NCBI GenBank assembly: GCA_963776275.1
Contig: CAVZMI010000023.1
Coordinates: 256,001 to 320,000 of the forward strand
Reading direction: 5' to 3'
DNA from: Ignavibacteriota bacterium
GTDB lineage: Bacteria > Bacteroidota > Ignavibacteria > UBA10030 > CAVZMI01
DNA: 64,000 bases
Both the position numbers and the translations under genes were made by a program. The notes under the pieces were generated by a model. It searched no databases. It was not told the origin of the DNA and saw only the letters and a list, made by a program, of their open reading frames with translations. The first letter of the stretch is position 1; each line of letters begins with the position of its first letter. Of this stretch, positions 2,009-49,344 are shown piece after piece.

Positions 2009-3388
2009 TTACCCCGGTTCTGCATGAATAGTGATTCGCCGGAGCTGTTTGAATTTTTTATAGAGATGGGCTTCCATTTCTGTTAGTACTTCATGGACAT
2101 CCTCGACGGTTTTCGACTTTCCGACCGTACATACCAGGTTCACACGATATCGGGTTCCCTCCTGAAGCAGCGTCAGGTCTGTGCATGCGAGGAAGTTTTT
2201 ATTTTCCAGGATTGTCCGCCTGATCTCATCGCGCAATTTTTGCTCGATTTTTGTGACATCACTCAGAACGATCTCTGAAGGGGAATATTCCTCCATATGA
2301 ATGGTCACTTTTTCAATCGCGGGGATCTCGGCACGAATTTCCTCTTCAAGTTCCGAAGCGATGGTGTGTGCTTCAACGAATGCTTTTCCTTTTTGATATT
2401 CTATGGTAAAATTAACGAGGTATTTTCCGTTCGTGTAGTGGACTTCAAGGTTCCCGGCGGCTCGTAATCCTTTATTGGCAACGATCATCTGGATCCGGTC
2501 AACGATTGTTTCATCATCGCTCCGCAGCGGATCGGCATGAACTATAACATCGATCGACGTATCAATCGAATGGACTGCTCGTTCGATATGTTCCATAATC
2601 TTGTGCGCCTGTTCGAAAGGAATTGTGCGGCGGATGCCGACGGTGACGTCAATAAATACTCTCGCACCTGAAGGGCGTACACGAAGACTGATCAGCTTCT
2701 CGACTCCATTGACTGCTTTTATAGCAGCTTCGACTTTTTCGGATAGTCCGGCCGGAACACGATCCATTAAGGCGTCAACGGTGCGCCGGCCAAGACGATA
2801 ACTGACGAATAATACGATGAGAGCGACAATAATAGCAGCTATCGCATCGACAGTCGGGTAGCCGAGGGAAACGAATATTAATCCTCCGATCACTGTCAGT
2901 GACGACCAGACGTTGCTCGAGAAGTGCAATGCATCGGCTTCGAGGGCCTGACTATGATGTTTTTTCGCAACGCGGCTTAATGCACGCGAACGGCTGATGT
3001 CGATGATAATAGCAGTACCCATTATAAAGAAGCCCCAGAACGTTGCTTCAACATGAGTTGAACGAATAAATAACCGTTCGACGGCCTCCCAGAGGATCCA
3101 TCCGCAGGTGATGATAAGCAATATCGTCTCGCCCAAGGCCGAGATGTTTTCCATCTTTCCATGACCGTAATTGTGTTCTTCATCCGGAGGTTTATCGGCG
3201 ACGATGACGGCGAAAAAAGTCATCAACGCTGCAATGAGGTCAAGCGCCGAGTGAGCCGCTTCCGAGAGTATTCCAAGACTGTTGGTCTGTATTCCAATCA
3301 GAAGCTTAAATCCGGTCAGAAATATTGCCGCACCTACGGAACTGAGCGCAATTGCCCTTTTTTCTTGACTGGCCGAAAGAGATTTCAT
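2009..3388 (-). CDS. Cation diffusion facilitator transporter with repeated C-terminal dimerisation domains
   Basis: SEAAHSALD, HNYGHGKMEN, ADALHFSS, three IHxE/DP motifs. Confidence 0.9.
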   Translation of the reverse strand: MKSLSASQEKRAIALSSVGAAIFLTGFKLLIGIQTNSLGILSEAAHSALDLIAALMTFFAVIVADKPPDEEHNYGHGKMENISALGETILLIITCGWILWEAVERLFIRSTHVEATFWGFFIMGTAIIIDISRSRALSRVAKKHHSQALEADALHFSSNVWSSLTVIGGLIFVSLGYPTVDAIAAIIVALIVLFVSYRLGRRTVDALMDRVPAGLSEKVEAAIKAVNGVEKLISLRVRPSGARVFIDVTVGIRRTIPFEQAHKIMEHIERAVHSIDTSIDVIVHADPLRSDDETIVDRIQMIVANKGLRAAGNLEVHYTNGKYLVNFTIEYQKGKAFVEAHTIASELEEEIRAEIPAIEKVTIHMEEYSPSEIVLSDVTKIEQKLRDEIRRTILENKNFLACTDLTLLQEGTRYRVNLVCTVGKSKTVEDVHEVLTEMEAHLYKKFKQLRRITIHAEPG

Positions 3389-3510: not shown

Positions 3511-6009
3511 ATGAAGGAAATCAAACGAACATATCCCATTGACAGTGTCTTACCGGGGTTATTGAAGGTGTTTCAACGAACGAACAATGTCGTTCTTTCT
3601 GCGCCGCCGGGTGCCGGGAAAACCACCCGGGTTCCCGTTGCACTTCTTGCCTCTGAATGGATGGAAGAAAAAAAGCTTGTGATGCTTGAACCGCGTCGTC
3701 TCGCTGCGCGCCGTGCGGCAGAATTTATGGCGGCTCAGCTTGGCGAATCGGTCGGCCAGACCGTGGGGTATCGAATTCGTGGTGAGACGGTCATCAGCAC
3801 GAACACGCGTATCGAAGTGGTGACGGAAGGAATCCTCACCAGAATGCTTCAACATGACTCTGCACTGCCGAACGTTGCGCTGGTAATCTTCGACGAATTT
3901 CACGAGCGCAGCATTCACGCTGATCTCGGACTTGCACTTACAATAGATGTGCAGGAACACTTGCGTAATGATTTGCATATTCTTGTTATGTCTGCCACAC
4001 TCGATGGTATAACGGTTGCACGTCTGCTCGGTAGTACACAAATAATTGAAAGCAAAGGAGAGAGTTTTCCGGTTGTTACGCAGTACGCGCGTTTCACTTC
4101 GGACAAACCGATTGAAGTCCGTGTCGCTGAGACTGTTGTACGGGCACTTGATAAACAGGAAGGCGATGTGCTGGTATTTCTTCCAGGACGTCGCGAGATT
4201 CGCCGGATGGAAAATCTTCTTTGGGAAAAACGGTTGGCGGAAGAAGTGCTTGTTCATTCTCTCTATGGAGATGCATCGTATCAACAACAAGCAGCGGCAT
4301 TGTCTCCGGCTTGCTCCGGGAAACGCAAGGTAATTCTCTCTACCAGCATTGCGGAAACCAGTCTGACAATTGACGGTGTACGCACGGTCATCGATTCCGG
4401 ATTAGCACGCACTGCCCGTTTTGATGTACGGCGAGGGATGTCGGGCCTGGTGACGATACCCGTTTCAAAAGCTGTTGCCGATCAACGACGCGGACGTGCC
4501 GGACGCCAGCAACCGGGTGTGTGCTATCGTCTTTGGACTGAAGCGGAACACGAAATGCTTCCCGATTATCCTCAGCCGGAAATTAAAACTGCCGATCTTG
4601 CGCCGTTTGCACTGGATCTCGCGCAATGGGGAGCGCCAACCGGTGAAGGATTACGGTTCCTCGATCCGCCGCCTGCTGCGCATCTTTCACAGGCACAGAT
4701 GCTTCTTGCGGATATCGGTGGAGTGGATTCTCTGGGCAAAATCACTACCCATGGACGTGCCATGGCAGAGTTACCTCTCCATCCGCGACTATCGCATATG
4801 GTTTTACGTGGTAGAGAATTGGATCTCGGTAAAATTGCCTGTGACATCGCTGCACTCCTCGAAGAGCGCGACCTCTTTGCGGGAAAAGAAGATACCGACG
4901 TTGACCTTGCATCCCGTTTGCATATGCTGTATGAGACACAAACTGTGGACGAAGGAATTCGTGAACGCATACTATCTCAGTCAAAGAGATTAAGGCGGCT
5001 TGCCGGTATTCATAGTGAATCGAAGGGGAGAGAAGAACACGCACAGGGAATTCTTCTTGCTCTTGTCTACCCTGAGAGGATTGCCCGGCGGCGTGAAAAT
5101 AAAGGCCTCTGTTTTCAAATGGCAAACGGAATGACAGCCGTACTGCCTCGTGGAAGTCTTCTCGCGCGGGAAGAGTTTCTTGCTGTTGGTGAAGTTGACG
5201 GGCTTGGCGCTGAAGTTCGGATTTATCTCGCCGCACCGGTTGCCAAAGAAGACCTGCGGCAGGTTTTTAAAGATACTATAATCGAGGAAGATGATATCCA
5301 CTGGAGTCCTGATGACGAAGCGGTGATCGCGCGGCATGTTCTACGTCATGGCGCGGTTGTTATATCAGCACAGCACATCAGGCCGCAAGGAGAGAAAGTG
5401 ATCTCGGAAATGGTCGACGGAGTAAGAGAGATGGGCTTAGATTGTCTTCCATGGAGTAAGGATTCGCGCTCAATTCAAGAAAGAAGCGAGTGGCTTCGGA
5501 ATTATATTGCGCGCAACGATTGGCCTGATCTCAGCAATGCCACCCTTTTAGAAACGATCGGAGCATGGCTCGCACCGTTTCTCAATAACGTTTGGCGTCG
5601 CGATCAACTTCATAAGATATCTATGGTTGAAATTCTTCGCTCCCGGTTCACGCATAAACAATGGCAGGAACTCGAACGATCCGCACCCTCACATCTCAAA
5701 CTGCCGAGCGGTTCCCGCGTTGCAATCGATTATGCCTCCGGTGAACAGCCCGTTCTCGCCGTGAAGCTGCAGGAATTATTCGGACAGACAGAGACGCCGC
5801 GCATTGTCAATGGTCAGGTTGGAATTGTTTTACATTTGCTCTCCCCGGCATCCCGTCCGCTTGCCGTTACACAAGATCTCCGACGTTTCTGGCAGACGGT
5901 GTATCCGGAGATTCGCGTACAAATGCGCTCCCGCTATCCCAAGCACTTCTGGCCTGACGATCCAATGACTGCAAGACCGACGAACAAACCGGTGAAGCGG
6001 AAAAAATAA
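3511..6009 (+). CDS. hrpB: ATP-dependent helicase HrpB
   Basis: APPGAGKTT, DEFHER, MSAT, STSIAETSLTIDG, QRRGRAGR, RYPKHFWPDDP. Confidence 0.95.
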   Translation: MKEIKRTYPIDSVLPGLLKVFQRTNNVVLSAPPGAGKTTRVPVALLASEWMEEKKLVMLEPRRLAARRAAEFMAAQLGESVGQTVGYRIRGETVISTNTRIEVVTEGILTRMLQHDSALPNVALVIFDEFHERSIHADLGLALTIDVQEHLRNDLHILVMSATLDGITVARLLGSTQIIESKGESFPVVTQYARFTSDKPIEVRVAETVVRALDKQEGDVLVFLPGRREIRRMENLLWEKRLAEEVLVHSLYGDASYQQQAAALSPACSGKRKVILSTSIAETSLTIDGVRTVIDSGLARTARFDVRRGMSGLVTIPVSKAVADQRRGRAGRQQPGVCYRLWTEAEHEMLPDYPQPEIKTADLAPFALDLAQWGAPTGEGLRFLDPPPAAHLSQAQMLLADIGGVDSLGKITTHGRAMAELPLHPRLSHMVLRGRELDLGKIACDIAALLEERDLFAGKEDTDVDLASRLHMLYETQTVDEGIRERILSQSKRLRRLAGIHSESKGREEHAQGILLALVYPERIARRRENKGLCFQMANGMTAVLPRGSLLAREEFLAVGEVDGLGAEVRIYLAAPVAKEDLRQVFKDTIIEEDDIHWSPDDEAVIARHVLRHGAVVISAQHIRPQGEKVISEMVDGVREMGLDCLPWSKDSRSIQERSEWLRNYIARNDWPDLSNATLLETIGAWLAPFLNNVWRRDQLHKISMVEILRSRFTHKQWQELERSAPSHLKLPSGSRVAIDYASGEQPVLAVKLQELFGQTETPRIVNGQVGIVLHLLSPASRPLAVTQDLRRFWQTVYPEIRVQMRSRYPKHFWPDDPMTARPTNKPVKRKK

Positions 6010-39931: not shown

Positions 39932-39961
39932 AATTTGTTGATCATTACAGGCGTGCTGCCA

Positions 39962-40756
39962 ATGGACCTTAGGTCTTCAAAATTACATTCGGTAGGCTGG
40001 CAACCTGTTTACATGGAGCTCATATGGTCATTGGAACATTTGCTTCGCCAGATAGCCAGTGATGTAAAGATGGAAGTTGGTGAACGATGGACATTGGGAC
40101 ATTTCAGACATCAAATTGGCGAACAGAAGCTTATGCCGCCAGTTCTTTTCAAGTCCTTAGATGTCCTCATTTCACATCGTAACATGCTGGCTCACGCACG
40201 CATATCTTACGAATCTGATGCAAGCGACTATCTACCAGATTTGGATGCAATCAGAAATCTAATTCTTTGGTATCTCTCGGACTTCGTGTCTGGTCCTCGA
40301 ATTCCAAGAAGTGAGGCCGTAAATCTGCTAGATGATGGCTTAACGGTTATTGGAAAAAGAGGAAGAACTATTTTCATCTCATATGCGAGAGAGGATGAGA
40401 AAAAGGCAGCGGAGGTATATGATGCACTCATTGGCAGAGGGCACATGCCATGGATGGATAAGAAAGAGCTAGTTGCAGGACAGGATTGGAAACTTAAAAT
40501 ACGCAAAGCTATTGAGAAGTCACAGTATTTTGTTGCATTGATGTCCGAACAGTCGGTAACCAAGAAAGGATTTGTCCAAAAAGAACTACGCTTTGCTTTG
40601 GATGTTCTCGGTGAGATTCCTCCTGGCCAAATATACTTTATACCTGTGCGCCTTGAAGAGTGTGAGGTACCAGATGCCATAAGAAGTTTGCACTGGATCG
40701 ACCTTCGGAGAAAAGAAGACTTAGAGCATCTATTTCGAGCAGTCGAGTATGAATAG
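39962..40756 (+). CDS. HEPN/DUF4145-like + TIR domain protein
   Basis: RNMLAH (RxxxxH); IFISYARED...WMDK..L.AGQDW...VQKEL...IPVRLEEC. Confidence 0.85.
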   Translation: MDLRSSKLHSVGWQPVYMELIWSLEHLLRQIASDVKMEVGERWTLGHFRHQIGEQKLMPPVLFKSLDVLISHRNMLAHARISYESDASDYLPDLDAIRNLILWYLSDFVSGPRIPRSEAVNLLDDGLTVIGKRGRTIFISYAREDEKKAAEVYDALIGRGHMPWMDKKELVAGQDWKLKIRKAIEKSQYFVALMSEQSVTKKGFVQKELRFALDVLGEIPPGQIYFIPVRLEECEVPDAIRSLHWIDLRRKEDLEHLFRAVEYE

Positions 40757-40856: not shown

Positions 40857-41693
40857 ATGCTTCCAAAAATATCATTACATCAATATTTAGATTCTGTTGT
40901 ACAGAATTATAATAAGTTCAAGGAATCATTCCCAAAGGCATTTCATACTGCAGAGGAGCTTAATGATTTGTTTTGGCAATTATATGAAACAGATATTGCA
41001 TCACAACCCGAAATATTATGGCAACAAATGTCGCACGAAATGATGTTCGGCTGTCTTATAAGTTGGTTAAATTCATTTGTGAATGCTGTGTCAGGTCTTG
41101 ATGAACTCGCTCAAACATCTGCTAGACGTGCAATCGAATTTGTTTGTTATATTAATAAAATTCGTAATTCTGACGAGAGGGCAGATTTATGGATGAGACA
41201 ACGCAAAAGTGATGATTCTCGGAAACAATTTATACGCGAATTTAGCGTACCTAGATGTTATTTTTCTAAAGAATATTCACATTTAGAAAAACTTTTACTT
41301 ATGTATGACCATTATTCAGACTTTGGAACTCATGCAAACTTATCTATGCTTGCAATGAAAAAAAAGGAAGAAGGGCCAGCATTTACTGATATAGTATTTG
41401 ACGAGTTTAGATATATTCCAATGAATGTAAATACAAAAATCTATTTGGGGTATTTGCTTGTAGAATCAATACTGCATAGTACAAAAGAATTTACAAGAGA
41501 TAATGAAACTCTCTCTAGAAAACTCGAAGCAATTAATTCATTAGTTAGACTTGCTGATGCAGAAATAATATCATTTGAAGTGAAGTCTGGAATTGAACCA
41601 GAAATTATTAATACCTTATTAACTAACCCAACATTGCTAAAATCAAAATTTGAAAAGCTAAAACAGTCATATTCATCTCGCGATAAAAAATAA
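40857..41693 (+). CDS. Gene-cassette protein, HEPN/DUF5677-like
   Basis: Helical, RRAIE and YDHYSDFGTH motifs; AT-rich; flanked by attC sites. Confidence 0.7.
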   Translation: MLPKISLHQYLDSVVQNYNKFKESFPKAFHTAEELNDLFWQLYETDIASQPEILWQQMSHEMMFGCLISWLNSFVNAVSGLDELAQTSARRAIEFVCYINKIRNSDERADLWMRQRKSDDSRKQFIREFSVPRCYFSKEYSHLEKLLLMYDHYSDFGTHANLSMLAMKKKEEGPAFTDIVFDEFRYIPMNVNTKIYLGYLLVESILHSTKEFTRDNETLSRKLEAINSLVRLADAEIISFEVKSGIEPEIINTLLTNPTLLKSKFEKLKQSYSSRDKK

Positions 41694-42003: not shown

Positions 42004-44277
42004 ATGAAGAATATCTTTCGTTGTCTGCTCTTTTGCATCCTTGCAGTCCCCGTCGTTGCTCAGGCGGTTGATGGCGAACTGGGCGTTTCCGTCTTTACAA
42101 CAGCGGAGATCACAGGGGCTGTGTCAGGGAGCCCGATTACATACAGGATTCAGTATTACTATAGAGGACTCCTCCCGGGCCCGAATGTCATCCTCACCGA
42201 TGTTGGATCTCCTTTGGTAGTGTTTCAGTCGGCGAGTGTGATGCCGACACGGCAGAACGGGGACACCCTCATCTGGGACCTCGGCACGCTGGACGTGGCG
42301 TTCAACGGTGAAATTGAGGTCATAGATCGGGTGAAGGACGGTCTCACAACAGGGACGAAGATCGAGAATACAGCGCTTATCTACGGAGGAGTCATCGAAG
42401 AGGACTCCACAAATAATGTATGCACCTCCGTTGCGGAGATCGAATCGCCATTTCCGGACATGTTGGATCTAATCACCGGGATTATTGAGACACCGGGACG
42501 CAGCCCGACTTCGATGGCGGAAGAGGGAATGCCCGTAACACTTATTGTCCAGTACTTCAACGACTCCTACTATGATGCGTCGGGCGTTTCTATCACCGAT
42601 ACGCTGTCGCCGAACCTGCAATTCATCTCCGCGGATCCTCCGCCGATATCCGTTTCTGGTCAGGTAGTCACGTGGGACGTAGGAGACGTCCCTTCACTGC
42701 AATTAGGTCAGGTGAAGTTCCTGGTGCGTCCCGTAAGAAGCGGAGAAGCACGTATCATTGCTGGCGTGTACAGCATCTCCGGTGACCGCGACAGTTCCAA
42801 CAATGTCGTCGACTATACATTCGACGTTGTTCCCGTCCTTGAGCCACTCGTCACGAGCCCGGCAGTTACTCCCGGCGAAAGCCGCGACACGTTGGTAACG
42901 ACAGGGAATCCCGTGTTCGAAGGGTTTGCCAGGGCAGGGGCGACGGTGTCGTTATACGAAATAGATAGCGCCGGCTGCAGCGACCCGCTCCTGCAATGCA
43001 ACCCGGTGCTTCTCGGTCAGGGAGTTGCGGATGCAACTCGGCGCTGGAAAATCACTCCTGTGGGAATTACCAACCCCGGCGCGCATCACCTCTGTCTGCA
43101 GGCTGCCTATCAGGGAAGCGTCTCCGTTCCTCTCAATGGGTTCTGGGTCCCATTCATCGTGTATATCGATTCGACGCTTGATTCCGGGGGCTATGACATG
43201 AGCAGCTACACAATTACCGTGGGACACTTCACCTACCATCCTGGCGGATTCGGCGGAAATGTCAGACTTCTTCCCAATCAACCGATCACGATTAGTCTTC
43301 GTGTGAATGTGCCTCCGTTGATAGCGGCGGATACTGCAATATGGAGGTACTACCCACTCCACCTTACGATTTGGAGGTCGGGAGATGTTATAGAAGATAC
43401 GTTATACCCGTCGATAGAACCGGTGGGTCTGCCGCGTGCCGCGCCGAGAGGTGGTTCAGGAAGAGATGCCCTCCTTGTAGTCTTTGACTTTCATTGGCAT
43501 CTGCCATTCCTCAACAATGGTGACGAAGATACAATCGATCCGCCCCCTCCTCCAAAGCCTGGTTGCCCCGGGTGTACGCCCATTCCCCGGCCTCGTCCGA
43601 GACCCACACCGATTGACCCTGCAGGATTTGTCTATGATCTTGATCTTGCGCGAACGGAGTACAAATGGCCCGCTGTTCCCCCTGCTGGAACTCTGATTAC
43701 CACCGCAACCGTGACAGCGTATGAACGCACGGGGGATTCGACGTTCGTGCATTGGCCTGCAGAAGACTGGATGCAGGTCAATCCCCAGATAACCGATGCC
43801 AGTACGGAAGACAGCGTTAAGGTCGAGGGGTACTTCTCGTTCCTTGTCCCGTCAGGACAATACCGCATCAGTTCACAGGCGCCGGGATACTTCGATGGCT
43901 CCAGTGGGATACTCACCGTGATCAACAATCCGATCTACTACAATATCGGCATGCGGCAGGTACCAAAAGGCTCCACCGGGATCCGTAGTGATAGACTGCA
44001 GAGCAATCAGGTACGTAACTATGAGCTTTTCCAGAACTACCCCAACCCCTTTAATCCGAGTACAACAATCCGCTACGAGTTGCCGAAGGCAATTCATGTC
44101 ACTCTCACGGTGTACGATATACTCGGTAGAAAAGTCGCAACACTTGTGAACGGTGTCGAAGAACCTGGATACAAGTCGGTGCACTGGGATGCAAGTGAAA
44201 TGGCCAGCGGAGTCTACTTCTACCGTTTGCAGGCTGGTAATTTAGTTAAGACAAAAAAACTTATTTTACTTAAATAG
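42004..44277 (+). CDS. T9SS-secreted protein with DUF11-like repeats, Ig-like domains and a Pro-rich linker
   Basis: Signal peptide, two ITDTL..F.SA / D..NN repeats, QNYPNPFNPSTTI C-terminal domain. Confidence 0.85.
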   Translation: MKNIFRCLLFCILAVPVVAQAVDGELGVSVFTTAEITGAVSGSPITYRIQYYYRGLLPGPNVILTDVGSPLVVFQSASVMPTRQNGDTLIWDLGTLDVAFNGEIEVIDRVKDGLTTGTKIENTALIYGGVIEEDSTNNVCTSVAEIESPFPDMLDLITGIIETPGRSPTSMAEEGMPVTLIVQYFNDSYYDASGVSITDTLSPNLQFISADPPPISVSGQVVTWDVGDVPSLQLGQVKFLVRPVRSGEARIIAGVYSISGDRDSSNNVVDYTFDVVPVLEPLVTSPAVTPGESRDTLVTTGNPVFEGFARAGATVSLYEIDSAGCSDPLLQCNPVLLGQGVADATRRWKITPVGITNPGAHHLCLQAAYQGSVSVPLNGFWVPFIVYIDSTLDSGGYDMSSYTITVGHFTYHPGGFGGNVRLLPNQPITISLRVNVPPLIAADTAIWRYYPLHLTIWRSGDVIEDTLYPSIEPVGLPRAAPRGGSGRDALLVVFDFHWHLPFLNNGDEDTIDPPPPPKPGCPGCTPIPRPRPRPTPIDPAGFVYDLDLARTEYKWPAVPPAGTLITTATVTAYERTGDSTFVHWPAEDWMQVNPQITDASTEDSVKVEGYFSFLVPSGQYRISSQAPGYFDGSSGILTVINNPIYYNIGMRQVPKGSTGIRSDRLQSNQVRNYELFQNYPNPFNPSTTIRYELPKAIHVTLTVYDILGRKVATLVNGVEEPGYKSVHWDASEMASGVYFYRLQAGNLVKTKKLILLK

Positions 44278-45972
44278 TATCAGATGATACCTACTGTAGG
44301 CTGTAAATAAATTAGTATAACAGACCTCAAGAGTCAAGAGGTAGAAGGTCGATGTACTGCTTGACGACTGAGGGAGTAAGACGAATGATGCGAGATATGA
44401 CATCAGCGTCATCAAATTTAGTAGAAAGTAATTTCACTGATTCAAAATCACGGATATAGCGTTCGACAGCTTCTTTTGAGTGATTAGTTTTCTGACAGAT
44501 GGTCGGAACGAGGTATCCTTTGAGGTAAAGAGCGATAATTTGTTTTTTATGTGTTTGTCCACTGCCAATGAGTTGAATGTTCCCGCGGGTTGGCAGAGGC
44601 CGATTGTAAAGGTTTTGATATTCACGGACATACTCGCCAGCAGTAAGGTCGGTCATGGTCAGAAGTACGGCAAGATCAAGTTGAGAAAGCAAGGCACCCT
44701 GATCGAAGGCTTGTGTGGTCCACCGTTCGATTTTTTTAAGGCGCAACTCACGGTGATGGATCGGAGTGCATAGATCTTCGATGTCAGAATCTGTGATAAT
44801 ATCGAGAATGATTGGTTGCAGTTTGGTCTGGGCCATGGATTTACCCTTTTTCGGATATTCATCGATAGGGACGGCATGCCAGGCCATTTGACCTTGTTTG
44901 AGGAAAGAGTTATCGGTATAGCGGTAGTAGTGCTCAATGAGGGCGAGCAAGTCATCGATAATAGCGGAGGCTGTGATGGTCCCTTTATCATAGCCGTAGT
45001 GATTAAGAAATCGATCTAGGAGAATATGTTTGAGGGATTTGCCTTTGATGCGTTTGTATTTACGCTCAGCAATAACACTGGCAGAGAAGTAGCGGGTATC
45101 GCGGGGTAAGAACTGCAAGTTCTTGGCAATCATAGCGTTAAGCTCCTTTTTTTTCGGTTGTTGGAGCAGCCGTTTCAGTTGAGAGCTTGACGCATGGTGT
45201 TTGAGGAGTTGCAGGTATTCACCAATCAGACGGTGTGAGAATCCGGTAGAGATCCGGATTTGATCGACAGAGAAGTCTTTTTTTCTCAGGAGAATAACCC
45301 GGGCAAAATCTTGGATGTAACGTTTGATGGCAGACTCTGAGTGTTTAGTACGGCGTTCGATATCGGAAAACTGATGACCGGAGAGATAGAGGGCAAGAAT
45401 CTGTGCTTTGTGCGTTTGTCCGCGCCCCATCTCATGGCGCCAGCCCCGGGAAGGAAGGATGATCCCTTTCTTTTTCATCTGGCTCATATCGCGTTTGATG
45501 GTGACGACGCTGCAGGTGAGAATGAAAGCGATATCTTCGTAGGACAGGGCACCGCCTTGATCGATAGCTTCATTTGTGATACGGACGATCTTATGGTGGC
45601 GGAGACCTCGAAGACCTGATTTTTTGTAGACGGGGAGATCTTCCTCAGGCTTATGCAGAGTAAGCTTGACGGAGACCTTTTTACAAAGCGCTAGTGGTTT
45701 ACCGGCGGGTTCGTTCTCATCGACTGCCAGGTAATGAAGTTGACCGGCATGAAGTTCTACTTCTGCATGATTGAGAAAATACTCGCTGATCTGTGTGAAA
45801 TACGCTTCAGCGAGGATCGGGGTGAGATTAAAGTCGCGAGCGATACTTGCAACGATCGACTGCTTAACTGATTTAGACTGTAATCGATTGCTGAGTTGTT
45901 GGTCGTGCATGTGATACCTCCGGCGTATGAATGATGAATGTAACCTTTTTTTGCCTTGGTATCACCTGATAC
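44277..45972 (-). mobile_element. Putative 1696-bp DUF1670 element with palindromic ends
   Basis: GTATCAGATGATACC (44277-44291) and GGTATCACCTGATAC (45958-45972), a 14/15 inverted match. Confidence 0.7.
44327..45910 (-). CDS. Tandem DUF1670-like protein; probably two genes, the second starting at 45133
   Basis: Twice QGAL...DxA..L...LPxRG....G.GQTHK..I.ALYL.G...HS..A..RY..DF; internal AAGGAG-N9-ATG. Confidence 0.8.
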   Translation of the reverse strand: MHDQQLSNRLQSKSVKQSIVASIARDFNLTPILAEAYFTQISEYFLNHAEVELHAGQLHYLAVDENEPAGKPLALCKKVSVKLTLHKPEEDLPVYKKSGLRGLRHHKIVRITNEAIDQGGALSYEDIAFILTCSVVTIKRDMSQMKKKGIILPSRGWRHEMGRGQTHKAQILALYLSGHQFSDIERRTKHSESAIKRYIQDFARVILLRKKDFSVDQIRISTGFSHRLIGEYLQLLKHHASSSQLKRLLQQPKKKELNAMIAKNLQFLPRDTRYFSASVIAERKYKRIKGKSLKHILLDRFLNHYGYDKGTITASAIIDDLLALIEHYYRYTDNSFLKQGQMAWHAVPIDEYPKKGKSMAQTKLQPIILDIITDSDIEDLCTPIHHRELRLKKIERWTTQAFDQGALLSQLDLAVLLTMTDLTAGEYVREYQNLYNRPLPTRGNIQLIGSGQTHKKQIIALYLKGYLVPTICQKTNHSKEAVERYIRDFESVKLLSTKFDDADVISRIIRLTPSVVKQYIDLLPLDS

Positions 45973-46036
45973 AAACTATAAATAACTTCAGCATCCACCG
46001 TATGTCGGGTGAGTGCGGCACACGAATCTGAAAACG

Positions 46037-46068
46037 AAACCGCCGATAGAAATATCGACGGTTTTTTT
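46037..46068. terminator. Bidirectional terminator
   Basis: AAACCGCCGATA-GAAA-TATCGACGGTTT-TTTT. Confidence 0.75.
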
Positions 46069-46135
46069 ATTAGCAATCATTAGCAAAAGTTTCCCACCCT
46101 CTGAACAACTACAAGGTGATGGTCACCACGGACTG

Positions 46136-46789
46136 TCATAAGACGCGGAACTTCACACCACAACCTGCATAGATGTTTATGATACGCCAGCTTACATCCG
46201 ATTGTACTTTTGTTAGTCCGTATGCAAATGTCACCTGAGGAGTAAGATCGATATCCCTTGCTATAGGAATCTCATACCCTGCTCCCACTTTTAATGCAAA
46301 CCGCGCCTGCATATCTTTTAATGAGCCTTTTTGTTTACCATAATCCTGACCCTGGATCGTTGTCGAAACCTCGTATGAACCCTCGACATTGATACCAAAC
46401 GATGGTCCAGCAATAAAATACAATCCACTGCGCTGTAGTTTTAATCTGAATAAAGCGTCGATAGTAAAATATCCTACACTTGATGAGTAATCTTGTGAGT
46501 AGTTACCATAATAAGGATCAGTCCCGCTTTTTGAATAGGAACCGCTCATATTATCGTAAAAAATTAGGCGAGTTAAAATTCCAATTGTTGGCGAAAATGA
46601 CATATCTGCTTCTCCGCCTATCATAAATCCTAAACCTGTACCTGTCTCCTGTATATCAGATCCGGAATGAATGTTGAAATTAAATCCCGTCACAGGTCCT
46701 ATAGCCATGTGGAATTGGGCTAAGCTTGGTGTTGCCGCCATGCACAAGCCAATAAGCAGAGCTAGAACAAATAGTGTAATTTTTTTCAT
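46136..46789 (-). CDS. Outer membrane beta-barrel (porin family)
   Basis: Signal peptide, amphipathic strands, AGPSFG, GAGYE. Confidence 0.85.
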   Translation of the reverse strand: MKKITLFVLALLIGLCMAATPSLAQFHMAIGPVTGFNFNIHSGSDIQETGTGLGFMIGGEADMSFSPTIGILTRLIFYDNMSGSYSKSGTDPYYGNYSQDYSSSVGYFTIDALFRLKLQRSGLYFIAGPSFGINVEGSYEVSTTIQGQDYGKQKGSLKDMQARFALKVGAGYEIPIARDIDLTPQVTFAYGLTKVQSDVSWRIINIYAGCGVKFRVL

Positions 46790-47063
46790 AATAGGGTTCC
46801 TCTCGGTTATTGAATGGGTACTATGTTCGTTAAGTATGACATCGTTGATGATGCTTTGGTGGTAGGATCTTCAACTCTTTAATAAAATTATCGGCAGTAT
46901 ATAGGATATACTTTAGATAGCCTTACCCGTCTAAGAGCAATATTACAAAACGAAATTGGAAGAAACAAGAGAATATTAAACTATTAAGAGAGAAAAATTG
47001 TATAAAAAAAGCCGAATATTGTAAGAATATCCGGCTAATAAAAAACTTCAAGAGATGATTCTC

Positions 47064-49148
47064 CTACTTCATCAGGACCATCTTCCTCGTAACGGCCATT
47101 TCCGGTGCCCCTTTCTGTGCGATTACCAAACGATAAAAATAGATACCGCTTGATACATTATTGCCATTCCGATCCATTCCATTCGACCGTATAATTCCCG
47201 GGAACAAGATCGCCGTCGGCAAGTGACGTTACAAATTCACCCAGAACGTTGAAGACATCAAGATTTACCTTTGCAGCACGCGGGAGTGAGAACCTGATAT
47301 TCGTCGATTGATTGAACGGATTGGGGTAGTTCTGGTTCAATTCGAACGATCCCGGTACTTCCTGATCGGCCATCTTAATTCCTGTCAAAGTAGTCAGAGA
47401 TGCCCGGAGGATTGCAACGGCATACTTCGCGTTATGAATACCCATGCTGCCATCATTCTTTACAAAGTAGTAGTTCCAGATTGCGGGATAGTTGTTCGGA
47501 TTGCTTTTTATGTTCATCGAATCTTTCTTGAAATCAGCCAGCAATGTCACCGGTTCACCATCGGCACCCTTTGGCAAGATCGCTTTTAGCTGATCTAGTA
47601 GACCCTGAATCTCAGCCTGAACGCTCTCTATTTTTCCGTTGCCATCGTAATCATATCCTGCCCGTATATCTTCGAACGACTGGATATTTCCATGGCATTG
47701 ACGGCATGCCGTGATCTTATCGACTCCGGCACTATCCATCGACATTTCGTGGTCAGAATTCGTTGCCCTGTAAGCCATGTGACATGTGACGCAGCCATTC
47801 TCCAATCCTTGATGTGTTCCCAAACCTGTGAGGTCGAGTCCAAATTCATATGCATTTGCACCTAGGTACATGTCGGCCTGTGTTCCATAATGAGGATAGA
47901 AACGATCGCGCCATGTTTGTTGCTGACTTGCGATTCGGGTCATTGCATTTTCACGGCCGCGGTGACAGTTCATGCAGAGTCGACCCGTTCCCCCAATACC
48001 GGCCGGCGGCACATAACCGTTTGCAAGAGAATCAAGAGAGACAGTCCGTAACTGTACCGGATTCGCCCCACTATGCGGATCATGACATACCTGGCAGGAG
48101 ATCGATTCCGTTACAACGACTCTGGAATAATCGGGAGATTTTTTGTTCGCAGCATACGCGATAAAAGACGACGGATTATGACAAGGATAACAGCTTGAGC
48201 GTGATGCCTCCTCGCTACTCAACGGCATCGTCGCATGTGTGGAGGCCTTCCAGTATTGTCCGATATTGTGATGCGGCGGCGCATCATGGCATTGCATACA
48301 GACACTCGCGTCCATGGATGCTTCTATATACTTTTTGTTGCCGGTCCTCTTATGATCATTAGCCGTCCGTGGCAACTTTCGCATCCGATTTTAGCGACCG
48401 GTAGTAATTGTGGATAATTTGTGTTGAGGTTACTCCAGACAGTCGTATCACCATTATGAATGAGAAACTCACCACCCCCCGCACTTCTCAAGCCTTTATA
48501 CCATGTGGTATCCCAGCCGGATATTTTTGCCAGATATCCAAAGTTTCCATTATCCGCATCTTTATTATACCCGGTCGTGTGACAACTGATGCAAAATGGT
48601 GCATAGACTCCATCACCAAAGGCATTGACTTCGATTTGACCCGTCAGAGCCCTATGGAACATCGTTGCATGAGCGGTTTGAGGATACGCCTGTAACTTTC
48701 CATCCGGATAGATGTAGTTATGGCAGATACATGTATACTCATCGACGAATCCGGAATATATACTCGCATATAATGTATCTGAAGCCGAAATCGAGCCATT
48801 AACGGTGACGGTTACAATGTATCTACCAACGACATCCGCTGTAAAACCGGTGTTCATCTGGTTTGTATTATCAAGGGTAACGGCAGATCCGACCGGTCCG
48901 GATATCATCCATGCAAACGATGTTGCCGCTGTTGCTCCAGAACCAGTCGTATCGACCGACAAATATGCTTTTTCGCCCTTCCCTATAGCATGCAACCCTC
49001 TCGATGTCGGAGCCGATGAGGTCAACCCAAGGCTCGCCTTATTGCCGGGTGTGACACCGATCCTCTTAACCTTTACCGTCTGGGCCATGACACTTCCCAT
49101 CAAACAACCCAAGAGGAAGAAAGTACAAACCGGTACCCCTCTTCTCAT
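47064..49148 (-). CDS. Multiheme cytochrome c with T9SS C-terminal domain; frameshifts near 48362 and 47175
   Basis: Eight CxxCH motifs plus one CxCH; QNYPNPFN; shifted tail SSGIYFYRL...KMVLMK. Confidence 0.85.
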
Positions 49149-49344
49149 ATTAATTCCTACTGTCGCTTTGAATTTACTAATCCCACGGCCGCCCACACTC
49201 AAATCTCCTCACAAGTGACGGTATAGCTGGCCACCCTCAATTAAATAAATCCCATGCCAAGGAAATCCATTGAAATACCGGTAAAAAAGAACTGATCCTC
49301 CTAATTTTTCTTAAAAGTAATAACTTTTTCCCGTAATTAGGATG

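Follow-up and report, generated by a model that had tools for sequence, protein, structure and literature searches.

The locus and its parts

The window analysed here is a stretch of 64,000 nucleotides (nt) from an Ignavibacteriota bacterium (GenBank assembly GCA_963776275.1, contig CAVZMI010000023.1, positions 256,001 to 320,000). At the end of a gene for a secreted protein with a C-terminal sorting domain of the type IX secretion system (T9SS), it carries a short element which is very probably an insertion sequence (IS) of an undescribed family, with two paralogous DUF1670 units as its only genes. The parts of the locus are listed in Table 1. The secreted protein matches Por_Secre_tail (E-value 2.6e-10; 8.4e-12 for the tail alone) and DUF11.

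The two palindromes of the element, each lengthened by one base, match as inverted repeats in 14 of 15 positions. Both their coordinates and this match had been given in an original prediction made for this DNA and were reproduced; the open reading frame (ORF) at 42004..44277 also agrees with its statement that the left palindrome begins on the last base (G) of the upstream TAG. The family had been named correctly: the protein of the element matches Pfam PF07900 (DUF1670) in two stretches with 382.5 bits (cut-off 25) and E 6.7e-115. The two paralogous units proposed earlier exist as DUF1670 units with 34% identity to each other; they are parts of a single ORF of 527 amino acids (aa) and not two genes. 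The proposed bounds, 44277-45972, were somewhat too narrow. Relatives carry 3–4 nt beyond the palindrome on the T9SS side and 7 nt beyond the far one, hence the window element extends past its palindromes to 44274-45979.

Table 1. Features of the DUF1670 element and its target gene in the window
Feature	Coordinates	Strand	Description
Target gene	42004..44277	+	757-aa secreted protein with a T9SS C-terminal sorting domain
Probable insertion sequence	44274-45979		1706 bp, ATAG...CTAT; bounds set by copy-versus-copy comparisons of relatives, flank rules and half-empty sites in genome G001
Left copy of the 2-bp target duplication	44272-44273		AA; first two bases of the last sense codon
Near end (next to the T9SS gene)	44274-44291		ATAG overlapping the dyad site 44277-44290; stop codon-then-palindrome layout also in relatives
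14-bp palindrome, T9SS-gene side	44277-44290		GTATCAGATGATAC; dyad site GTATCA-GA-TGATAC
Fused OrfAB	44327..45910	-	527 aa, single ORF
C-type DUF1670 unit	44330-45124	-	Second part of the fused OrfAB
N-type DUF1670 unit	45125-45910	-	First part of the fused OrfAB
Putative former frameshift site, now a fixed fusion	45133..45160	-	A8GGA versus A7G5 plus two more bases in split relatives; coordinates approximate, from the alignment of window 45080-45200
14-bp palindrome, far side	45959-45972		GTATCACCTGATAC; dyad site GTATCA-CC-TGATAC
Far end	45959-45979		Dyad site 45959-45972 plus 7 terminal nt AAACTAT
Right copy of the 2-bp duplication	45980-45981		AA; within AAATAA 45980-45985 (+), a displaced Lys codon and stop of a T9SS gene
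Former 3' flank of a T9SS gene	45986..46042	+	Conserved in G001

The last Lys codon of the target gene (44272-44274) and its TAG (44275-44277) are hybrids, in which AA comes from the gene and A+TAG from the element. The AA pair at 44272-73 and 45980-81 sits in an ambiguous AAATA direct repeat.

The 3.70-Mb genome contains the pattern GTATCANNTGATAC three times (and the reversed control pattern not once), twice at this locus. The remaining occurrence, on contig C10 (G000:C10:46689-46736; L002 about 1480-1548), is a solitary remnant of an end: the ~22 final codons of a T9SS tail, with stops ahead of them, then TAG and the initial 20 bases of the element's near end. A place in G001 (G001:C8:130317-130364) matches a 48-base stretch of this remnant at 92%.

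Relatives and mobility

Relatives were collected in a species-level scan (one genome per species) that yielded 267 encoding stretches, of which the best 80 were kept as loci. They belong to Ignavibacteria, Melioribacteraceae, other Bacteroidota, Neomarinimicrobiota, Zixibacteria, Eisenbacteria and, most often, Poribacteria. The distribution of DUF1670 is patchy: it was found in 10 of 61 related genomes, mostly as two adjacent units, with some lone fragments. Among the control genomes, that of the archaeon Methanosarcina acetivorans also gave a match. As expected from the pairing described in the original prediction, the units travel together, the N-type unit lying directly upstream of the C-type unit in 80/80 genome loci and in 19/22 metagenome loci. 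A profile search of 1.84 billion representatives gave 1437 clusters (50% identity) at E ≤ 1e-3. Ten distant clusters lie mostly on contigs of 1–2.5 kb, as repeats do, and are named only 'hypothetical' or 'DUF1670'.

Copies were compared with each other in seven genomes holding 2–8 of the 80 loci each. Discrete aligned segments of 1.7–2.2 kb were obtained in five of the seven, and flanks were unrelated between copies in all six multi-copy genomes for which flanks were given. The two copies in G056 are 98.9% identical over 1916 bp with no similarity outside and with unrelated flanks, and a Poribacteria genome holds five copies at 99.75–100% identity. The shared mobile unit, 1.7–2.0 kb long in relatives, contains only the two DUF1670 ORFs. 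Further, in G001, a genome of the same genus as the window, the orthologous T9SS gene (97% identity) ends in ...CTTAAATAA and lacks the element; homology to the window stops at 44276. The earlier proposal of a mobile element is thus upheld by both the multi-copy relatives with different flanks and the orthologue in G001. Discrete units in several copies (up to 100% identical in relatives) with differing flanks, terminal inverted repeats and a short target duplication are the features by which insertion sequences are recognized.

The locus might instead be an ordinary, immobile transcription factor gene lying between its own operator palindromes. The protein is rich in helix-turn-helix (HTH) modules and some sources label relatives 'predicted transcriptional regulator' (in NCBI they are called 'DUF1670 domain-containing protein'). 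This explanation is contradicted by identical copies at many loci with different flanks; it also accounts neither for the discrete boundaries of the unit and its fixed position at stop codons nor for presence and absence varying between genomes of the same genus, and we give it next to no chance.

All 19 sequencing runs listed with this sequence are assembled as contigs (best share 0.29), and none is an RNA run. The contigs of four runs show no joints. A contig end at 45972 that continues TATTTT... resembles a T9SS tail in reverse reading; the resemblance is too weak and was not used.

Ends of the element

Both palindromic ends were found in 68/80 loci under a rule that asks for a dyad site with 7 further nt on the far side and a dyad site with TAT at the near end. 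The terminal 7 nt are AAACTAT in 46/68 loci. Each end consists of two inverted half-sites 2 bp apart (6 bp, 2 bp, 6 bp) with the core CA-NN-TG. Palindromic ends around DUF1670 pairs, whose search had been suggested as a check, are therefore conserved family-wide, with lineage-specific arms of the TATCA, GGTCA, GGACA, TGCCA and GGGCTC types. The arms are GTATCA/TGATAC in the window element, GTATCA/TGACCC in Poribacteria, GGACA/TGTCC, TGCCA/TGTCC and TGACA/TGTCC in other genomes of the Ignavibacteria class, and GGGCTC...GAGCCC in a high-GC soil lineage. In Poribacteria the difference between outer and inner half-sites runs alike at both ends, an asymmetry that would fit two different units bound per end.

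The high-GC lineage (L171, L172, L177, L179; metagenome contigs) has a unit of 1.84 kb with the ends TTCACTGTGGGCTCGAATGAGCCC ... GGGGCTCCAATGAGCCTATTCAGGRGCAAGTAGCTAG. By eye, no T9SS tail was noticed in its flanks; no dedicated test was made.

Target choice

The near end was found by pattern in 74 of the 80 loci, and in 64 of these an open frame of at least 20 aa enters the junction. Fifty-four of the 64 frames match Por_Secre_tail, FlgD_ig or CHU_C (E ≤ 0.01). Seven of seven further junctions from other lineages match Por_Secre_tail. The orientation depends on the lineage: in the TATCA lineages the T9SS gene and the DUF1670 genes are convergent, with their 3' ends facing each other, and in the GGACA, TGCCA and TGACA lineages the T9SS gene precedes them in the same orientation. 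By pattern, the genome of the window has 97 T9SS-like tails, of which 62 end in Lys and 34 in Arg; a single one is occupied.

In genome G330 (that of L094; e.g. L151-L159) the insertion site of one sub-lineage is the loop of a hairpin, GAAACCGAG-TTTTTTCTTC-AAAACTCGGTTTC. The hairpin arm has 178 matches at ≤1 mismatch in G330, often arrayed at a spacing of 159–352 nt.

Insertion point, codon rebuilding and 2-bp duplication

In genes with a T9SS C-terminal sorting domain, the element splits the last sense codon, entering behind its second base. In the reading direction of the target gene, the near junction of Lys tails is always ...AA|ATAG and then the dyad site, and that of Arg tails is CG|ATAG; some lineages have a terminal A+TAA in place of A+TAG. 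The six bases past the far end are AAR plus TAA, TAG or TGA in 59/68 loci, and the far-side codon is AAG in 34 of these 59. Hence the third Lys base and the stop on the near side derive from the element, whereas the codon and stop of the gene itself have been displaced. Since A+TAG completes the split codon and provides a stop, the target protein remains unchanged. Examples of Arg tails are L087 (CG|ATAG...|CGCTAG), L180/L181 (CG|ATAG...|CGCTAA) and G056 (CG|ATAG... with |CGATGA and |CGCTGA).

The element recreates Lys and stop behind the tail, and the site therefore remains a target for re-insertion. At L066 (about 4780-4830) a GGACA-type copy is followed immediately, at its far end, by a nested TATCA-type copy, and at L081 (about 3040-3090) a remnant near end lies just past the far end of an intact copy.

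The flanking dinucleotides are identical in 67/68 loci (66 AA, 1 CG). The hairpins of G330 allow filled and empty sites to be compared. Of 30 distinct empty hairpins, 27 contain six consecutive T; of six filled ones, five have six T on one side and two on the other, and L094 has six and three. Filled hairpins carry two T more than empty ones, therefore insertion adds two bases. A 2-bp target duplication is thus supported by 67 of the 68 loci and by the hairpins; the original prediction had seen no clear duplication. Duplications of 3 bp (ATA) or 5 bp (AAATA) were considered and ruled out, the far side being often AAG or TGA versus AAA and TAG on the near side.

The prediction had further proposed recombination at the centres of the palindromes by a heterodimeric tyrosine recombinase. 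The paralogous pair of units, the palindromic sites and the conserved R, H, K and RY agree with this model. It is contradicted by the empty sites, which contain no palindrome half-site, and the junctions lie 3–7 nt outside the palindromes. Moreover, the 2-bp centre is unlike the 6–8-bp overlap of tyrosine recombinases, no integrase is matched in Pfam, in NCBIfam or, at E ≤ 1e-3, by fold in Foldseek, and RY falls in the HTH region of the C-type model. We consider such a recombinase very improbable.

Staggered cuts followed by repair and a conservative 2-bp exchange via a circle would both account for the 2-bp repeat. The prevalence of AA in nearly all copies, although a third of the tails in the genome of the window end in Arg, leans slightly to conservative exchange or to a preference at the protein level. 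The CG at Arg tails in close lineages leans to staggered cuts with repair. Conservative site-specific recombination with a 2-bp overlap, using serine-recombinase-style chemistry performed by a new fold, would differ from the mechanism proposed below in chemistry only. The junction of the excised circle would then read far end, NN, near end, and the circle would be exchanged with a target having the same dinucleotide. The joined ends, CTAT-AA-ATAG, indeed form inverted arms around a 2-bp centre, and the dinucleotide looks lineage-specific, with AA in 66/68 loci although 34 of 97 tails in the window's genome end in Arg, CG in both G056 copies, and a related copy in G032 also located after a CGA-TAG tail. 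A weak match to HTH_7, similarity to the Tn3 resolvase HTH (Z 5.4) and an R-x3-K-S motif near the N-terminus of both unit types point the same way. On the other hand, no resolvase catalytic domain was found by Pfam, NCBIfam, Foldseek or the PDB profile, the available contigs, which show no joints, gave no circle junction, and close lineages take AA or CG according to the last codon of the tail (L180, L087 versus L183), which fits a duplication derived from the target equally well. This chemistry is possible and we hold it as a tentative alternative.

Reading frames of the two units

Fusion of the two units was seen in three of the 80 loci; in the other 77 each unit has its own ORF. Frames were compared in 101 loci that contain both units: relative to the N-type ORF, the C-type ORF is shifted by −1 in 78 of them and by +1 in 20, and three loci keep one frame throughout. 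At the unit junction, 81 of the 101 have a run of six or more A. An A5-8G5-7 motif is kept at the junction in Ignavibacteria, Poribacteria and the high-GC lineage. The arrangement corresponds to the IS3/IS1-type layout, with OrfB in the −1 frame and a slippery motif in the overlap. The window element and L055 have A8GGA and two bases fewer, and the frames are thereby joined. By manual reading of the junction alignment, the window peptide ...PKKKELNAMIAKN... corresponds to the −1 product of L053, ...PKKKGALNTMIAKN....

Domains, fold and conserved residues of DUF1670 proteins

Besides DUF1670, the fused OrfAB matches only HTH families in Pfam, all below their thresholds (HTH_7, a resolvase HTH, E 0.00044). 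NCBIfam gave no match above threshold, and its weak matches to IS630 (E 0.0014), IS1 and IS21 span HTH segments only. No DDE, HUH or serine-recombinase motif had been visible in the original prediction, and Pfam contains no match to such domains. For the DDE transposase domain (RNase H-like; D,D,E/D) there is also no NCBIfam match and none among the Foldseek and VIA-align fold matches of the C-type unit model. The serine-recombinase catalytic domain (PF00239) has no match beyond the HTH_7 part, and the 2-bp duplication is at odds with what is expected of HUH elements (IS200/IS605, IS91).

The C-type unit was modelled with AlphaFold using a 26-sequence alignment (predicted local distance difference test, pLDDT, 81.7; predicted template modelling score, pTM, 0.58). 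In the model, a small N-domain made of three helices plus a beta hairpin is accompanied by a winged helix and two more HTH modules; there are only two beta strands and the rest is helical. A model of the N-type N-domain alone (residues 1-100) was poor (pLDDT 59.3), and Protein Atlas gave no usable match for the C-type N-domain.

Positions common to both unit types are, in C-unit numbering, R25, K29, S30, Q79, E89, K95, D114, R128, R134, D141, Q142, D150, R180, H192, K193, H215, R222, Y223, D226 and Y257. The motifs R(G), (T)HK and HSxxAxxRY, noticed earlier in the window element, were confirmed, and even across 24 distant members (25–43% identity) no positions are better conserved. Only five residues are invariant in these members: Gly in RG, His in THK, His in HS, Tyr in RY and a further Tyr. 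HSxxAxxRY lies inside the HTH region of the C-type model (residues 187-265), and this region matches sigma region 4 and the resolvase HTH with Z of 5–6.

The predicted kinship with tyrosine recombinases was not borne out. Neither Pfam nor NCBIfam matches an integrase, none is present among the VIA-align matches, and Foldseek, suggested as a check, gave none at E ≤ 1e-3; XerH appears in its list at rank 24 with E 0.89 and TM-score 0.20. An HTH-only fold with an unconserved Tyr had been named among the outcomes that together would refute the prediction; the modelled C-type unit is indeed rich in HTH, whereas the Tyr of RY is invariant. A tyrosine nucleophile may possibly be kept in this residue.

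Long family members were noted as well (P0127, P0131, P0135, P0138, P0247), and four of eight checked (930–952 aa) contain three DUF1670 stretches. P0247 is a 400-aa member with DUF1670 and a DnaG-type CHC2 zinc ribbon.

Proposed mechanism

We propose the following course of transposition. The N-type unit would be made as OrfA, and programmed −1 frameshifting on A5-8G5-7 would give the OrfAB fusion as the active protein; in the window element this fusion is fixed in the DNA. DUF1670 units would bind the half-sites of both end palindromes and draw the ends together. They would also recognize the conserved coding DNA for the last part of the sorting domain and either perform or direct a staggered exchange of 2 bp. 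We infer that DUF1670 itself performs the DNA chemistry, because its units are the only genes of the element, the family occurs in distant phyla and the frameshift layout is transposase-like. More specifically, DUF1670 may represent a new class of transposase or recombinase, composed of HTH modules and a small N-domain and having the active site Arg-Gly...His...(Thr)His-Lys...His-Ser...Arg-Tyr. Four units (two OrfAB, or chains of at least three fused units as in the members of 930–950 aa) would assemble on the two dyad sites and carry out the 2-bp staggered exchange, and the safe harbour would be the last codon of T9SS cargo genes, repaired by the element's own end. We give this specific reading about even chances.

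A number of results weigh against the reading as a whole. Concerning catalysis, the fused OrfAB has no catalytic domain in Pfam or NCBIfam, only DUF1670 and HTH; its matches in PHROGs are HTH, DNA-binding or unnamed families; the PDB-sequence profile search gave no match at E ≤ 1; and Foldseek on the C-type unit model gave no match at E ≤ 1e-3. In VIA-align (48,161 chains) the best match, the winged helix of topoisomerase VI-A (1d3y_B; 61 residues, root mean square deviation 2.3), has a Z of 6.2 and is tied with generic HTH folds, namely small terminase, ScpB, NiaR, LexA, sigma region 4 and the Tn3 resolvase HTH. The cutting of DNA by DUF1670 is therefore deduced and not read from a known domain. 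Concerning the reading frames, the 20 of 101 loci in the +1 frame are unexplained by simple −1 frameshifting; most of them carry long A-runs and, speculatively, these loci may use transcriptional slippage.

Concerning the target, ten of the 64 junction frames have no T9SS-type domain (L061, L062, L066, L078, L093, L099, L102, L117, L122, L127). By eye, L062 and L078 have T9SS-like tails, and the target in L066 is another DUF1670 gene (the nested insertion mentioned above). One Poribacteria sub-lineage (six loci) occupies hairpin loops instead of T9SS tails, and equal flanking dinucleotides are absent at L122 and in a decayed copy in G031. Finally, the element is present in its own genome in just one copy, and there is no single complete empty site for it. 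The right flank in the window is not orthologous to the sequence after the target gene in G001: window 45980-46042 matches two places on G001:C3, ~1 kb apart, at 97% and 94%, and the one that was read directly follows the stop of a T9SS gene ending in ...ATGAAATAA. The two flanks in the window may thus stem from different T9SS genes, for example by recombination between two copies.

In a further explanation, DUF1670 only binds DNA (ends, target, regulation) and a host enzyme cleaves and joins it, as Xer does for IMEX elements. The modelled unit consists of HTH and winged-helix modules with a small N-domain, no catalytic fold or motif was recognized, and none of the eight long or fused family members checked has a known enzyme domain attached. 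Yet the elements are multi-copy in Ignavibacteria, Poribacteria, Eisenbacteria, Zixibacteria and high-GC soil contigs, which would call for a universal host partner. At 25–43% identity, invariant His, Lys, His and Tyr residues exceed the conservation usual for a recognition helix, and the OrfA/OrfAB frameshift layout is that of IS transposases. We therefore regard a host enzyme as unlikely. For an insertion sequence with precise, codon-repairing target choice, the evidence is strong.

The match to topoisomerase VI-A was followed as a lead (a Spo11-like Tyr with a 2-nt stagger) and rejected: it is tied with generic winged helices and the N-type unit has no residue equivalent to Tyr165 of the C-type unit, leaving it an idea only.

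Other features of the window

Just before the ATG of the fused ORF, at 45911-45925 (minus strand), a third TATCA half-site, GGAGGTATCACATG, overlies the ribosome-binding site and the start codon; by eye, it is a possible autoregulation site. A hairpin with a T-run is seen by eye near 46040-46068, beyond the conserved 3' flank. The Rfam search of 43500-46800 gave only C0465 (E 0.81), below its threshold, and the promoter and terminator scan of 44150-46200 found no excess over shuffled sequences.

Upstream of the target gene, 39935-40756 (+) encodes a 273-aa protein with a C-terminal TIR domain (TIR_2, 7.1e-29). It is followed by a 278-aa ORF at 40857-41693 (+) with no Pfam match; the two are possibly a defence pair. 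Downstream, two ORFs at 47158-48384 (−) and 48324-49202 (−) contain many CxxCH motifs by eye, and the former has an element-free T9SS-like tail region.

Significance and comparison with known systems

Among the papers listed by keyword searching, none names DUF1670 or PF07900 or deals with such an element (supplements and ISfinder lay outside the search). The results would assign a function to a Pfam domain of unknown function with 1437 public clusters and would add an IS family whose proteins carry no known transposition catalytic domain. With a 1.7-kb element, another DNA-moving chemistry becomes directly testable. The target is unusual and precise: a multi-copy conserved coding tail serves as a neutral landing pad, and the split codon is repaired. 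Multi-copy elements targeting such tails explain many short, broken contigs in assemblies of Poribacteria and Ignavibacteria, and the DUF1670 element may offer a way to place DNA right behind genes for secreted proteins.

IS1 and IS3 transposases are made as OrfA and OrfAB by programmed −1 frameshifting on slippery sequences of the A6G or A7 types. The DUF1670 elements resemble them in length (about 1.3–2 kb), terminal inverted repeats, two consecutive ORFs of which the second is mostly in the −1 frame, an A-rich slippery motif and a short duplication. They differ in that the DUF1670 OrfB has no DDE/RNase H domain, OrfA and OrfB are paralogous to each other, a dyad site is present at each end and insertion is site-specific. 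The 2-bp flanking duplication at a preferred dinucleotide and the several HTH modules are shared with IS630 and Tc1-mariner, in line with the weak NCBIfam match to IS630, which covers HTH only. However, DUF1670 lacks the DDE/D domain, and the dinucleotide is AA or CG depending on the target codon, not TA.

With XerC/XerD and Tn554 TnpA/TnpB the DUF1670 elements have in common two paralogous proteins, dyad sites and conserved Arg, His, Lys and Tyr. The fold is unmatched, the exchange takes place off the dyad centre, and the 2-bp repeat contrasts with an overlap of 6–8 bp. The flanking 2-bp repeat also resembles the crossover dinucleotide of serine recombinases and IS607, and there is a weak similarity to the resolvase-type C-terminal HTH; unlike these systems, DUF1670 has no resolvase catalytic domain by sequence or fold.

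As to the target, IS1397 and ISKpn1 are DDE elements of the IS3 family that insert into hairpins of repetitive extragenic palindromic (REP) sequences. One Poribacteria sub-lineage likewise occupies the loop of a genome-repeated hairpin, but the hairpin is a secondary target of the DUF1670 family, which mostly uses T9SS tails. In Tn7 (TnsD, attTn7), the conserved 3'-terminal part of a coding sequence is recognized, and insertion takes place harmlessly downstream of the single-copy gene glmS. The DUF1670 element would similarly recognize conserved coding DNA at gene ends and inserts without harm; its proteins are unrelated to those of Tn7, and it enters the last codon in a gene family of ~100 members per genome and repairs this codon with its own end.

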